DNA of 34,946 nucleotides from a virus (Duplodnaviria; Caudoviricetes): the IMG/VR virus record IMGVR_UViG_3300037760_000125, positions 1-34,946 of that record; one strand, 5' to 3'. Under the pieces are notes generated by a model. It did not search any database. It was given only the letters and a program-made list of their open reading frames with translations, and was not told the origin of the DNA. Shown piece by piece: positions 11,416 through 30,146 of this stretch. Positions within the stretch are counted from its first letter, which is position 1. Each line of letters starts with the position of its first letter. Both the position numbers and the translations under genes were made by a program.

Positions 11416-11424
11416 GCACACGAC

Positions 11425-11450
11425 AGTAGCACGCTACCGTTTGGGTGCAA
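11425..11450 (-). promoter_or_regulatory. Promoter with palindrome
   Basis: Minus strand TTGCAC-16nt-TACTGT-7nt-ATG(11415); near-perfect palindrome AGTAGCACGCTACC at 11425-11438. Confidence 0.75.
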
Positions 11451-11453
11451 GCG

Positions 11454-11813
11454 CTAGGCCGTCGCCGACCGGCGAGCAGCCCCCGTACCGGGGGGGCGCC
11501 ACCGCTTCATCGGGTGCCCGCAGCACCAGGAGCCCCGGTCATAGCGGATCTCCACGACGCCCTCGTGTGCCGGATCAGCGACCGTCCAGCGGTCCGAGCG
11601 TCCCGGCACCGGGACTAGCTCCGCCTCGGCGACGACCAGAGCGAACGGCCGGTCGGTGGCAGCCGACCACGCCCACACGATCACGACCGTCGGCGCCCCG
11701 TCGGTGACGTCACCCTCAACGGTCAGGCCCGGGCCGGCCACCAAGTGGCAGGGCTTGCGTTCGCTGCCGTCCGGCATCGTGACCCGCACAGGCGCCCGAT
11801 GTTCGTGCTGCAT
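11454..11813 (-). CDS. Hypothetical protein
   Basis: MQHEHRAPV..., 119 aa; ATG 7 nt after TACGTT; the upstream in-frame extension is the repeat array. Confidence 0.7.
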   Translation of the reverse strand: MQHEHRAPVRVTMPDGSERKPCHLVAGPGLTVEGDVTDGAPTVVIVWAWSAATDRPFALVVAEAELVPVPGRSDRWTVADPAHEGVVEIRYDRGSWCCGHPMKRWRPPGTGAARRSATA

Positions 11814-11840
11814 AGGGCCGAACGTAGCCCTATGCAGCAC
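11805..11840 (-). terminator. Perfect 14-bp hairpin closing the repeat array
   Basis: GTGCTGCATAGGGC-8nt-GCCCTATGCAGCAC. Confidence 0.7.
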
Positions 11841-11841
11841 T

Positions 11842-12319
11842 TCACCGGGCCTGCCTAGCCACACCCGGCCACATCGCGCCACGCCTGACCTGGACGGGCC
11901 GAGCCCCGCCATGCCTGCCTCGCCATGCCCAACCGGGCCAAGCCTGGCCTTGCCGCCGCCGCGCCCAACCGTGCCTTGCCAAGCCTGCCGCGCCGCGCCT
12001 AGCCGTAACGCGCCCAACCTCAACGAGCCTGAACCTGCCGAGCCTGCCTCGCCGAACCACGCCTGGCCCAGACTTGCCTGGCATCGCCAAACCTGGCCTG
12101 CCGAGACGGGCCTTGCCTTGCCCGGCCAGAACCTGACCGGCCTCACCACGCCTGCCATGCCATGACTTGCCCAACCCAGCCCGACCCGGCCAGACCGTGC
12201 CCTGCCGTGCCTCACCACGCCTGCCGCGCCCAGCCCAACCTAGCCCCGCCTCACCGCGCCCGGCCTGGCCTAGCCACGCCTGCCTTGCCGTGCCGTGCGT
12301 TGCCGAGACTTGCCCCGCC
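11842..12319 (-). repeat. GGY-NN pentamer array punctuated by GGCA; candidate guide-RNA array (VIPR-like)
   Basis: Hand-parsed: 89 pentamers + 8 GGCA + 1 extra nt = 478 nt; + strand GCCTGCC punctuation at 11849, 11913, 11983, 12042, 12096, 12150, 12219 and 12278. Confidence 0.9.
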
Positions 12320-12744
12320 TAGGCGGAGAGCTGCTCGACGTCGTTCTTGACCATGGCCATGAACTCGCCGAGATCCTTGTACCGGCGTAGGAGCGTCTTC
12401 CACTCTCGCTCTGCGTCGCGGAGCAGCATCGCCCGCTTGAGCGGGTCCTCTGCGATGGCCTCGGCCGGCTCGTACACGCTCTCGTCGTCGGTACCACGCA
12501 CAGCGTGGAACGCCCGGATCGACTTCCCCGGGTCGGTGTCGGTCGCCTCCTTGTAGACGATCCTCACCGACCGGATCAGCTCGCGGGCCTGGTGCTTCCG
12601 CCACTTCTCGGAAGCGACCTCGTCGTCCCACTCGAACCGGTCGTGCAGCGGGTGATCGGCGGCGCGTGCCGCGTCGAGGACGATGGCAGGGGTGAGCTTG
12701 CCGTGCTCGGTGTAGATCGCTTGGAGCTGGTCGCGCAGGCTCAT
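12319..12744 (-). CDS. Accessory protein coupled to the RAMP-like gene
   Basis: ATGA overlap; GKLTPAIVLDAAR...HPLHDRFEWDD...ARELIRSV; the array starts within its stop codon. Confidence 0.85.
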   Translation of the reverse strand: MSLRDQLQAIYTEHGKLTPAIVLDAARAADHPLHDRFEWDDEVASEKWRKHQARELIRSVRIVYKEATDTDPGKSIRAFHAVRGTDDESVYEPAEAIAEDPLKRAMLLRDAEREWKTLLRRYKDLGEFMAMVKNDVEQLSA

Positions 12745-13367
12745 CGGTACACCTCGGGCATCACGTCGATCTCGCGGGTGATGTCGATGCGGTAGGACCC
12801 GAACTCGCCACCCTTCTCCGGGCGCCACTCACCGACGCCGACACCCATCCCGCCAGCGTCGATCAACGACAGGACGCTGTCACGGGTCAGCGACGATCGG
12901 ACGTACGTCACCGTGAGCACGGTCGCCCACTCGTGGTAGATCGGCCGGTACCGCAGATCGGTGCCGCCCTGCCCTACCCGGACGACGTCCTCGCGCATCT
13001 CGGCCTCGCCTTCGATCCGGGCCAGGGCCTGCCCGTCGACGCCGATCTTGCCCCGGAAGAACAGGAACTGCTTGAGCGCGGTCATCGTGACCTGCTTGCC
13101 GTAGAACCGGGCACCGCCGACCGTGGCCAGCTTGAACGCCACGACCGGCACGCCCGTGCCGCCGTCCTCGAACCGGTAGAACGCGCCCTCATAGTCCTCC
13201 TGGGGGTTCTTCGGTTGCTTCGGCGTCTTCCGGCCCTGCATGTTGTCGAGCATCTGGCGCTTGGCCTTCTCGCTGAACCGGTGCACGATCAGCGGCGTGG
13301 TGCCGATGATCGGCACCTGCACGGTCTCTGCGTCGATGCGTTGGATCTCTACGGGGGCGTCAGCCAT
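12741..13367 (-). CDS. Stand-alone Cas7/RAMP-like RNA-binding protein (Vipr-like)
   Basis: IIGTTPLIVH beta1, GVPVVAFK helix, RYRP...W, and C-terminal Gly-rich loop AGGMGVGVGEWRPEKGGEFGSY; AAGGAG RBS; 208 aa. Confidence 0.8.
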   Translation of the reverse strand: MADAPVEIQRIDAETVQVPIIGTTPLIVHRFSEKAKRQMLDNMQGRKTPKQPKNPQEDYEGAFYRFEDGGTGVPVVAFKLATVGGARFYGKQVTMTALKQFLFFRGKIGVDGQALARIEGEAEMREDVVRVGQGGTDLRYRPIYHEWATVLTVTYVRSSLTRDSVLSLIDAGGMGVGVGEWRPEKGGEFGSYRIDITREIDVMPEVYR

Positions 13368-13395
13368 GGTGGTCTCCTTGTGGTGGTCGGTAGAC

Positions 13396-13409
13396 GGTAG
13401 CACCCTACC
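13396..13409 (-). promoter_or_regulatory. Palindrome/promoter of the RAMP operon
   Basis: GGTAGCACCCTACC; minus-strand TACCGT -10 upstream of the RBS. Confidence 0.8.
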
Positions 13410-13420
13410 ATCACGATCGG

Positions 13421-14911
13421 TCAGGCCGCACGCGCCCCCGGCGTCCGCTTCGCCACCGCGGCTCCCGTAGGCAGAGACGGGACGACCTGCTCCGGGGTGA
13501 CACCACGCGACGGCGGCGCGGTGATCTCGGGCAACAAGAACGAGCACGCCCACACGAGAGCATCCATCCTGTCGGGTGACGTCTTGTCGGTCGGCACCCA
13601 CGTGCTCATCTGCTCTTCCAGTTCGGAGAAGTGCCCGATGTGGTGGGCGCGGCCCTGGTCGTAGACCATCGCGACCGGCTCGGCCCGGACGATCTTGCCT
13701 TTCGACGCGCGGACCTCGACGACGTTGACCATCGGGTCGACCTGGTGGATCGAGTCCACACCCATCGCCGCCCCGAAGTTGGTCTCTAACACGACGGCGT
13801 CGGCGCCGAACTCGTGGAACAGGGAGACGACCTTCGGGACCCACTCGGCCGGCCTCACCCGGCACGATGCGTCGCGGCGGATGTACACGTGGTGCATCGG
13901 CACGATCAGCCCCGACGCCAACAGCGTGGGGATGGACTCGGCCGACAGGGACACAACGACGATCCCGCACTCGTCGCCGCCGTCCGAGCCCGACGGGTCC
14001 ACGCCGATGACGGTGCGCCTGAACTCGGGGATCAGATCGATGTCGCGTATCGGGTTGAGGCGGTGCTGCTGGATCAGGTCGGGTGTCCACAGGGCGCCCT
14101 CGACGAAGTCCAAGACGATGCCGTGGATCTCCTGCAGAGCGACCCTGGTGCCCTCGTACTTGGCCAGCACGGCGGCGACGTACTCGGGTGCGAGGTTCGA
14201 TGCGTTGTCCAGCAGCGACCCGCGGATGACGTGGATCTTGCCGCCGAGCTTCCCGGTGGTGATGTCCCGGATCTGGGGGATGGGCTTCGGTGTGGTGGTC
14301 ACGATCCCGAGGGGCTGCATGCCCGGTGGGCACTCGGCGCGCAACGCGAAGTCGCAGTTCGTCCACGCCGTGTTGCCGACGCTGTCGATCTTGTGATCCC
14401 AGGAGGCCAGCTCATCTGCGGCCAGGGTGTGGAGGTTGCGGCCTCGCACCTTCTCCGGTTTGACCGCGGTGTGCACTTCGACTTCGGTGACATGCCGGTA
14501 GCCGGCCCTCGGGATGATCAGGCGGCCGTGCAATGCCGACCCGGCGTGCTCCAGCTCGTAGCCCCGCGCCTCGCAGACCTTCTCGATCCCCGATTCGCCG
14601 TGGATCTGGATAGACGACACGGCGTCATGGGTTTGGCCGATCAGGCCCATGAGGTGCGGCCAGCGGGCGTCGGCGAAGGCCTCGCACCGATCGACGAGCG
14701 CCTCGGACGCGCACCTGTTCTTCCCGAACCCGCGGCCCGTGATCCACGCCAGCCACCGCGCCGGCTCCGGAGGGGCGATCTGCTCGGGCCGCGCCAGGAA
14801 CCCATGCCAGTCCACCAGGAGCCGGGTGATCTCCCCTGGGGACAGCGACTCTATGAACGCCGCCTGCTCGTCAGCGGGTGCTTCTGCGAGCAGCTCGGCC
14901 GGACTCTTCAC
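13421..14911 (-). CDS. terL: Terminase large subunit
   Basis: GRGFGK Walker A, LAADE Walker B, TTTPKP coupling motif; nuclease IGVDPS and SPDRMDALVW. Confidence 0.95.
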   Translation of the reverse strand: MKSPAELLAEAPADEQAAFIESLSPGEITRLLVDWHGFLARPEQIAPPEPARWLAWITGRGFGKNRCASEALVDRCEAFADARWPHLMGLIGQTHDAVSSIQIHGESGIEKVCEARGYELEHAGSALHGRLIIPRAGYRHVTEVEVHTAVKPEKVRGRNLHTLAADELASWDHKIDSVGNTAWTNCDFALRAECPPGMQPLGIVTTTPKPIPQIRDITTGKLGGKIHVIRGSLLDNASNLAPEYVAAVLAKYEGTRVALQEIHGIVLDFVEGALWTPDLIQQHRLNPIRDIDLIPEFRRTVIGVDPSGSDGGDECGIVVVSLSAESIPTLLASGLIVPMHHVYIRRDASCRVRPAEWVPKVVSLFHEFGADAVVLETNFGAAMGVDSIHQVDPMVNVVEVRASKGKIVRAEPVAMVYDQGRAHHIGHFSELEEQMSTWVPTDKTSPDRMDALVWACSFLLPEITAPPSRGVTPEQVVPSLPTGAAVAKRTPGARAA

Positions 14912-14920
14912 CAGGCGAAT

Positions 14921-14934
14921 GGTAGGGGGCTACC
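14921..14934 (-). promoter_or_regulatory. Palindrome/-10 upstream of terL
   Basis: GGTAGGGGGCTACC; TACCAT-7nt-GTG(14911). Confidence 0.75.
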
Positions 14935-15010
14935 CGTACGCGACACCGCCCCCGAGGCGGGCGCTACGGAGGCGGCGTCTGCAGGGCGGATCTGCTCGGC
15001 AGCGACGGTA

Positions 15011-15454
15011 TCAGGCCGCCGTGGCGTACTCGGCGAGGTACACCCCGAGCGCGGTGCGGGCCAAGTCGTAGCGGACGACCCCACCGACCGGGCCGATCGG
15101 GAAGTCGTCGACCCGCAGGGTCCGCTGGTAGCTGACCACCCCGGCGGGGCTGAGCACAGCGAACCCGGTCATCGGGGGCCGAGGGCCTCCCATCGCCGCT
15201 GCGACAGCATGGGGCCACGACCCGAACCGGCCGCCCGGGTGGGCTTCGGCCAGCCTTGCTGCGACGTCGAGGCGGCGCAGCGTGTCGACCGTGAACCGGC
15301 GGCGGCTGCCCGACCCGGCGGCCATACCCGGCAGCTTGCCCAGGTGGTCGACGGTCCGGATGGCGTGATCGAGCTGCCGGTAGGAGATGTCGAGCAGGAC
15401 GGCGACGGTGCGGGAGTCGAGTCCTGCGACGACGTCGTCGGTCATCGTCAACAT
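15011..15454 (-). CDS. MerR-family HTH regulator
   Basis: ISYRQLDHAIRT...AAGSGSRRRFTVDTLRRL; start may be 15445. Confidence 0.75.
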   Translation of the reverse strand: MLTMTDDVVAGLDSRTVAVLLDISYRQLDHAIRTVDHLGKLPGMAAGSGSRRRFTVDTLRRLDVAARLAEAHPGGRFGSWPHAVAAAMGGPRPPMTGFAVLSPAGVVSYQRTLRVDDFPIGPVGGVVRYDLARTALGVYLAEYATAA

Positions 15455-15456
15455 GG

Positions 15457-15470
15457 GGTAGCACACTACC
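15457..15470 (-). promoter_or_regulatory. GGTAG-N4-CTACC palindrome
   Basis: GGTAGCACACTACC immediately upstream of the MerR-like gene. Confidence 0.75.
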
Positions 15471-17924: not shown

Positions 17925-17962
17925 GGTGGTGGTCTCCTGGTGCTGACGTGGTGTGCCAGGAC

Positions 17963-17976
17963 GGTAGCACACTACC
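17963..17976 (-). promoter_or_regulatory. Palindrome/promoter of the helicase
   Basis: GGTAGCACACTACC; TACCGT -10. Confidence 0.8.
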
Positions 17977-21827: not shown

Positions 21828-21836
21828 GACGTGGAC

Positions 21837-21850
21837 GGTAGCACGCTACC
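21837..21850 (-). promoter_or_regulatory. Palindrome/-10 upstream of the MTase
   Basis: GGTAGCACGCTACC; TACCGT-7nt-GTG(21827). Confidence 0.8.
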
Positions 21851-24574: not shown

Positions 24575-24592
24575 ACGGTAGGGTGCTACCGT
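24575..24592. promoter_or_regulatory. Extended palindrome, probable divergent promoter
   Basis: ACGGTAGGGTGCTACCGT gives TACCGT on both strands; + strand TACCGT-7nt-ATG(24600). Confidence 0.8.
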
Positions 24593-30107: not shown

Positions 30108-30132
30108 CGGTGCTCCCTTTGATCGGAGTTGC

Positions 30133-30146
30133 GGTAGCACGCTACC
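30133..30146 (-). promoter_or_regulatory. GGTAG-N4-CTACC palindrome
   Basis: GGTAGCACGCTACC upstream of the acidic-protein/endolysin pair. Confidence 0.75.

Follow-up and report, generated by a model that had tools for sequence, protein, structure and literature searches.

The window analysed here, a 34,946-nt stretch of DNA from a tailed-phage record (Duplodnaviria; Caudoviricetes), carries a compact locus of ~1.6 kb on its minus strand. The operon comprises a palindrome, a ribosome binding site (RBS), a 208-aa ORF, a 141-aa ORF, an array and a hairpin, in that order. An earlier reading of the letters alone (the sequence-only reading) had placed the palindrome, AAGGAG motif, both ORFs, the ATGA overlap between them, the 478-nt array and the hairpin; all of these positions were reproduced. 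The features are listed below.

13394..13409, minus strand, 16-nt palindromic element, likely promoter or operator (13409-13396 in the sequence-only reading; 8 window copies)
13374..13379, minus strand, RBS AAGGAG, 6 nt 5' of the ATG (read from the sequence)
12741..13367, minus strand, vipr, 208 aa, single-RRM RAMP with thumb and G-loop (36pp homology, model, fold matches, phrog_4652)
12319..12744, minus strand, accessory (vap) gene, 141 aa, with a winged-helix-like domain predicted at the N-terminus and helices at the C-terminus (model, phrog_15946)
11842..12319, minus strand, staggered GGY/NN array of 97 units, 478 nt (parsed)
11805..11840, minus strand, 15-bp hairpin closing the array (fold of an 81-nt stretch, z = -7.5)

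The ATGA overlap (12744-12741) couples vipr to the accessory ORF, and the first G of the array is the last base of the accessory gene's TAG stop codon. A public contig spanning 11300-13293 has zero differences from the window at a depth of about 117; the agreement is not independent, since the window may itself derive from that sequencing run. The neighbouring genes are those of a phage. The terminase large subunit is encoded directly upstream, and the other neighbours include a UvrD-type helicase, an HNH protein, a methylase and an endolysin. With vipr, one vap, and both terminase and endolysin in the same window of a virus record, this is a minimal phage locus. No integrase was found in the window by tblastn with one integrase query, and the record may be incomplete. 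A host in the actinobacteria is suggested by the GC content (70.7%) and by the closest named homologues, which come from Thermoactinospora (73%) and Gordonia phages (58-64%). An NCBIfam scan of 78 of the 172 window ORFs of at least 90 aa found no cas genes, and no CRISPR-like repeat family was present among the 20 largest of the 53 repeat families in the window. To this extent, the claim that the window lacks cas genes and a classical CRISPR array was upheld.

The only significant PDB sequence match of the 208-aa protein is SUSP1 Vipr (36pp), with an E of 4.5e-6 (profile E 8.5e-8). VIPR is a CRISPR-related system for RNA-guided DNA silencing published in 2026 (bioRxiv 10.64898/2026.04.26.720920). 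The sequence-only reading had suggested such a match; it is genuine, given the published system and the homology to SUSP1 Vipr. We compared an AlphaFold model of the protein (pLDDT 87.6) with known folds, as that reading had proposed. Csm3, Cas7 and Cmr proteins head the matches (Foldseek E 5e-6; VIA Z 10.8, rmsd 4.0-4.3 A, 156 residues aligned). The entry 36pp is absent from the fold-search matches (the Foldseek library ends in April 2026). The RAMP identity first claimed from the letters is supported both by these matches and by homology to the solved SUSP1 structure. In the accessible part of its description, SUSP1 Vipr contacts G1, G2 and Y3 of the guide through H17, R138 and D177/W178/R179 (10.64898/2026.04.26.720927). 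These residues align with H29, R141 and E180/W181/R182 here. Among 109 sequences, R141, E180, W181 and R182 are invariant and H29 is kept in at least 90%. The protein was assigned to phrog_4652, and its family numbers 3124 matches at 90% clustering and 5457 at 50%. Pfam and NCBIfam gave no name for either Vipr or the accessory protein.

The palindrome had been described as the promoter of the unit. It is present at the expected place, but it is not a dedicated VIPR element. There are 8 copies in the window, against 0.07 expected, and 0/37 related loci contain it. Hence, the palindrome is not VIPR-specific, and we rejected it as a part of the system. The copies (minus strand, 2469-2484, 11423-11438, 13394-13409, 15455-15470, 17961-17976, 21835-21850 and 30131-30146; plus strand, 24577-24592) mostly sit shortly 5' of apparent gene starts. 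No σ70 consensus promoter was found. The copies likely form a promoter or operator regulon that belongs to the phage itself; the VIPR cassette sits under one of them, which probably drives the VIPR operon.

The array has a regular anatomy. A perfect GGY is present in 84 of its 97 units. Pairs of GGY spaced by exactly 5 nt occur 63 times; 2000 shuffles averaged 3.8 such pairs and never exceeded 11, and other 478-nt stretches of the window contain at most 8. All eight runs of at least four tandem GGYNN in the 35-kb window are inside the array. The four-base units are, in 8/8 cases, GGCA and each is then followed by GGC, giving a one-base overlap. Since these eight overlaps split the array, we read it as eight separate guides. 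The GGY-NN pentamer array of the sequence-only reading is thus real, but in place of the single guide envisaged there are about eight, in a staggered layout. Guides g0 to g7 contain 8, 12, 14, 11, 11, 12, 14 and 13 pentamers and are followed by a 2-unit stub; VIPR guides in general have about 9-16 GGY/NN pentamers. The one 6-nt unit, at 11960, lies within g6. The guides are as follows.

12281..12319, minus strand, g0, 8 units (7 informative NN), short (array parse)
12222..12280, minus strand, g1, 12 units (11 NN), predicted to target tyrosine-integrase genes at their 5' end (seed scans)
12153..12221, minus strand, g2, 14 units, target not found (array parse, seed scan)
12099..12152, minus strand, g3, 11 units, target not found (array parse, seed scan)
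12045..12098, minus strand, g4, 11 units, target not found (array parse, seed scan)
11986..12044, minus strand, g5, 12 units, target not found (array parse, seed scan)
11916..11985, minus strand, g6, 14 units including one 6-nt unit, target not found (array parse, seed scan)
11852..11915, minus strand, g7, 13 units, target not found (array parse, seed scan)

There is no sequence between the guides and hence no tail or spacer. The array has no Rfam match and there are no hammerhead ribozymes between guides, where the units leave no room for them. We conclude that the phage locus is a VIPR system with eight abutting guide units.

The stub (11851-11842) separates g7 from the hairpin (11840-11805), which has 14 Watson-Crick pairs, one closing U-G pair and a 6-nt loop. 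A U-tract 3' of the hairpin is absent, and it was not flagged as a U-tract terminator. The hairpin is likely a terminator or a 3' protector of the array. We rejected it as a conserved tail; in a crude test, a 10-bp stem was found at only 16/48 array ends in relatives. A 119-aa ORF without a Pfam match (11457-11813, minus strand) has its ATG inside the 3' arm of the hairpin, which could couple transcription of the array to this ORF.

We examined 37 related viral loci, among which two pairs look duplicated. An array and an accessory homologue beside vipr are present in 36/37; the exception stops at a contig end. The adjacency of GGY/NN arrays to vipr homologues, which the sequence-only reading had singled out for checking, is therefore conserved in this clade. 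The array is on the same strand in 36/37 relatives, and its position relative to the genes varies. Across the clade, GGCA accounts for 413/603 four-base units, and guides are most often 11 units long. Among cleanly parsed clade guides, 237/303 have 8-13 units (all of these counts include two duplicate loci and the window). At one related locus (L033 2022-2591 and 4001-4591) there is a second vipr-like stretch, holding a stop codon, and there are about 43 GGCA junctions in two arrays.

Named phages have the same layout. Gordonia phages Pipp, UmaThurman and ODay, Mycobacterium phage Donkeykong and cyanophage Cy-LDV1 encode Vipr proteins 33-64% identical to the one here, with GGCA-staggered arrays. 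The accessory family is also the same in UmaThurman, ODay, Donkeykong and Cy-LDV1. Those loci differ in having other guides, an array between or before the genes, and annotation as hypothetical proteins only. Even arrays are annotated in this way, as for Pipp gp43 (L039 3126-3395) and Donkeykong gp48 (L065 1480-1866); NN diversity in the array of Donkeykong is very low. Separate guide tracts occur in distant Vipr loci (L068 2628-2687; L067 1591-1885), one in Gordonia phage Trine and three in Pseudomonas phage LESphi2. The accessory genes of Trine and LESphi2 differ from the phrog_15946 family.

The accessory protein was modelled with a pLDDT of 93.1. Residues 1-99 are weakly winged-helix-like (Foldseek E 0.07; VIA Z up to 6.4); the comparison covers chiefly this part, and residues 100-141 were barely tested. 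Foldseek and VIA gave no nuclease fold, and neither PDB sequence searches nor Foldseek gave a significant match. In the Atlas, the protein belongs to unnamed viral clusters only. Residue His34 is invariant in the family, phrog_15946. The protein shows no sequence homology to the gene 3' of vipr in SUSP2 (E 0.11); a winged-helix-like fold may be common to the two. Among six more distant phages, the family is present in ODay, Donkeykong and Cy-LDV1, which have staggered arrays. It is missing from the four loci without staggered arrays (SUSP2, LESphi2, Trine and Medea1).

The closest known systems are the staggered-array VIPRs (10.64898/2026.04.26.720920). As described in the text of that report and the legend of its fig. 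S18, these are phage loci with vipr and one vap, GGY/NN pentamers, a 1-nt guide overlap and no cas genes, and nothing in that description separates our locus from them. The locus is a good new example of an already-published system, with both VIPR and the staggered layout in print. VIPR systems are sorted into types I-VII, and the supplementary data of the same report may include this clade already, along with its type and targets. Its text holds no target prediction for staggered arrays. Small RNA sequencing confirmed the ribozyme and single-guide layouts (10.64898/2026.04.26.720920), and in the accessible part of the VIPR literature we found no experiment on staggered arrays.

The type II systems of SUSP1 and SUSP2 (36pp), as far as the accessible descriptions go, share with our locus a homologous Vipr, conserved GGY-contact residues, the order vipr-vap-array and, as predicted for g1, a wobble-aligned target in a recombinase gene. 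Conversely, Vipr identity is about 28% over the C-terminal third only, the accessory proteins show no sequence homology and the type II loci have four tailed guides, not eight abutting tail-less ones. The conserved structured 3' tail on each type II vrRNA (SUSP1 clade) is absent here. Target engagement by SUSP1 starts at a 3' pseudoknot, according to the accessible part of 10.64898/2026.04.26.720927; the guides described here lack this element. SUSP2 has tails between its guides and our locus has none, so the layout differs from the one characterised for type II. Class 1 CRISPR Cas7 and Csm3 have the RAMP fold, thumb and G-loop in common with Vipr, at 9-15% identity. They differ in having partner cas genes, a repeat-spacer array and contiguous pairing in place of a pentamer code.

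The staggered layout could also be read another way. The array might remain uncut, as one long RNA on which Vipr would form separate filament segments between the GGCA register breaks. The lack of a tail or spacer between units, the absence of an Rfam match, an accessory protein without a nuclease fold and the single hairpin closing the whole array would all fit such an RNA. Conversely, the legend of fig. S18, in the part of the source available, refers to 'individual processed vrRNAs' (10.64898/2026.04.26.720920), and in type II each guide is an RNA of its own, about 100 nt long (10.64898/2026.04.26.720920). We consider an uncut array possible but rather unlikely, and treat the array below as a set of eight separate guides.

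One guide has a candidate target. Decoded as codons, g1 resembles what we take to be the N-terminus of an integrase, an idea formed ahead of any scan. According to the published target rule, NN pairs are read with one skipped base between them (10.64898/2026.04.26.720920). We scanned for g1 with a 9-unit seed, which forces 18 of the 22 bases. There were 18 seed matches, 2 in viral, 8 in genome and 8 in metagenome collections. Ten of these fall at one N-terminal site in tyrosine-integrase genes; they lie on the sense strand, place the skip at the wobble position and score 19-21 of 22 (best 21/22). The domain PF00589 was confirmed in four of the matched integrases; the others were assigned by phmmer to one of those. 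The set is redundant in part: one protein accounts for two matches, a further match is 84% identical to it, and 9 integrases are distinct. Nine to ten consecutive codons match in the 9 distinct proteins, whose pairwise identity is mostly 25-53%. At the skipped positions their genes differ, except at a Trp codon, and mismatches sit at the 3' end of the guide. In 8/9 distinct integrases, a potential start codon precedes the site by 5-30 codons; a site so close to the gene start is a good place for a transcription block. Among the carriers of the site are a phage with 70% GC, two genomes from Chloroflexota and one from Acidimicrobiales. The Acidimicrobiales integrase (L054 about 14450-15232; g1 20/22) directly adjoins the start of what, from its sequence, looks like a housekeeping nucleotidyltransferase-like gene. 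This junction is likely an element boundary.

These matches have to be set against chance. No genome or metagenome contained the full 22/22 pattern of g1. The other 8 of the 18 seed matches are non-integrases, two of them homologous Streptomyces genes at 19-20/22. As a control, 401 genomes were searched at 19/22. The true pattern gave 1 match, already known, and the reversed pattern gave 6. Hence, a score of 19/22 alone is chance at this scale. The position of the g1 mismatches at the 3' end also counts against the reading, given that SUSP1 begins engagement at a 3' pseudoknot and the guides here have none. It is conceivable, therefore, that the locus is a true VIPR whose g1-integrase match is coincidental, the real targets being unsampled elements. 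The imperfect matches, attainable by chance at gigabase scale, and the lack of a credible target for six other guides speak for coincidence. So does the abundance of integrase genes, which means that any integrase-like guide gathers many matches. Conversely, coincidence accounts poorly for nine to ten consecutive codons in the wobble frame at one conserved site in 9 distinct integrases, and five other seeds gave zero viral matches. Furthermore, in the accessible part of 10.64898/2026.10.15.759431, SUSP1 VIPR acts on a satellite recombinase with a wobble-aligned target. We regard coincidence as unlikely. The case for g1 rests on convergence at one site, and it probably targets the 5' end of tyrosine-integrase genes. 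The sequence-only reading had proposed a block on competitors or host defences; g1 points to integrases of mobile elements, but no target evidence supports the part concerning host defences.

Six guides besides g1 were scanned; g0, with 14 bases, was left out of the collection scans. The exact 9-unit seeds of g2, g3, g4, g5 and g7 gave 0 matches each in viral contigs, which is no proof of absence, because an exact scan misses targets mismatched within the seed. The g6 seed had one viral match (21/26), which we took as chance since it lies in a 23%-GC contig within short frames. The antisense of g6 resembles a conserved Vipr motif. An anti-vipr role for g6 was rejected, the best DNA match being 18/26 and the best protein-level match 7/13 codons among 269 homologues, where shuffles give 6-8. 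Against the phage and contigs carrying three of the g1 sites, the other guides gave nothing above shuffles. No guide reaches 80% in its own genome.

We also examined the skip rule across the clade. Two of 205 clade guides match a non-self vipr gene at 90% or better under a skip of 1, and 0 do so under skips of 0, 2 or 3. Among 100 shuffles, one gave 1 such match and none gave 2. Both guides are wobble-aligned, and both match the vipr of another phage better than their own (19 vs 16 of 20 and 18 vs 15 of 20). The test is weak at an 80% cut-off, with 4 against 0-3. When all DNA in the analysis was compared at 85% or better, there was a small excess for skip 1 (14 guides vs 8-9 for other skips). 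As a comparison of sequences, the clade-level check supports the one-base-skip rule for staggered guides. Anti-vipr guides, like recombinase targeting, have been published for the SUSP1 family (10.64898/2026.10.15.759431, accessible part). The anti-vipr guides here are L013 4606 (19/20), L019 4624 (18/20) and L020 5107 (17/20), all of which match their own vipr less well; those of L013 and L019 are the first guides 3' of their own vipr. A further guide, L001 5937, matches L004 at about 5999 (minus strand) with 22/24 under skip 1, just downstream of the L004 array.

A last reading is extremely improbable. In it, a class 1 CRISPR module left as an orphan (type IV-like Cas7) sits beside an unrelated simple repeat, or the repeat codes for protein. 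In its favour, fold searches return Csm3/Cas7, the array is crossed by open frames, and arrays of this kind are annotated in phages as hypothetical proteins. Against it, no cas gene was found among the 78 ORFs scanned and no CRISPR repeat among the 20 largest repeat families, 36/37 relatives keep a same-strand array at a variable position relative to the genes, one-base shifts every 40-70 nt are incompatible with a reading frame, and the direct Vipr homology, together with the conserved arrays, largely refutes it.

Taken together, we hold with considerable confidence that the locus is a staggered-array phage VIPR, in which we predict that Vipr polymerises on eight short guide RNAs, through which it would bind and silence the dsDNA of rival mobile elements, with g1 likely directed at the start of tyrosine-integrase genes. 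Transcription would run from the palindromic element to the hairpin. By analogy with the type II papers, one Vipr protomer per pentamer would grip the GGY, and the NN pairs would read the first two of every three target bases, with the skipped base on the codon wobble position. The bound filament would then repress transcription without cutting. Each GGCA overlap would break the filament register and set guide boundaries, by processing or by capping, and the winged-helix-like accessory protein may assist. With its integrase silenced, a resident prophage or satellite would fail to excise during replication of this phage.

A bolder proposal, which we offer tentatively and think unlikely to be right in full, assigns the accessory protein a specific role. 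It would be the junction factor of tail-less arrays, capping or cutting at GGCA, and g1 would be a family-wide anti-integrase guide that pins many unrelated prophages. A winged-helix protein would here replace the pseudoknot tail of SUSP1 and the Cas5/Cas6 of CRISPR. The suggestion stems from the distribution of phrog_15946, which accompanies staggered arrays (36/37 near loci and 3/3 distant phages) and is missing from 4 non-staggered loci, and from the invariance of His34. Kinship alone could explain this co-occurrence.

Since VIPR is already published, the staggered-array VIPR described here will not surprise a specialist. Its use is a practical one, as a staggered example packed into 1.6 kb that comes with a concrete, testable target. 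The layout is shared by cultured Gordonia and Mycobacterium phages, so guide maturation, the tail-less skip rule and the role of the accessory protein are directly testable. If tail-less guides work, eight targets in 478 nt would make a very compact multiplexed repressor.
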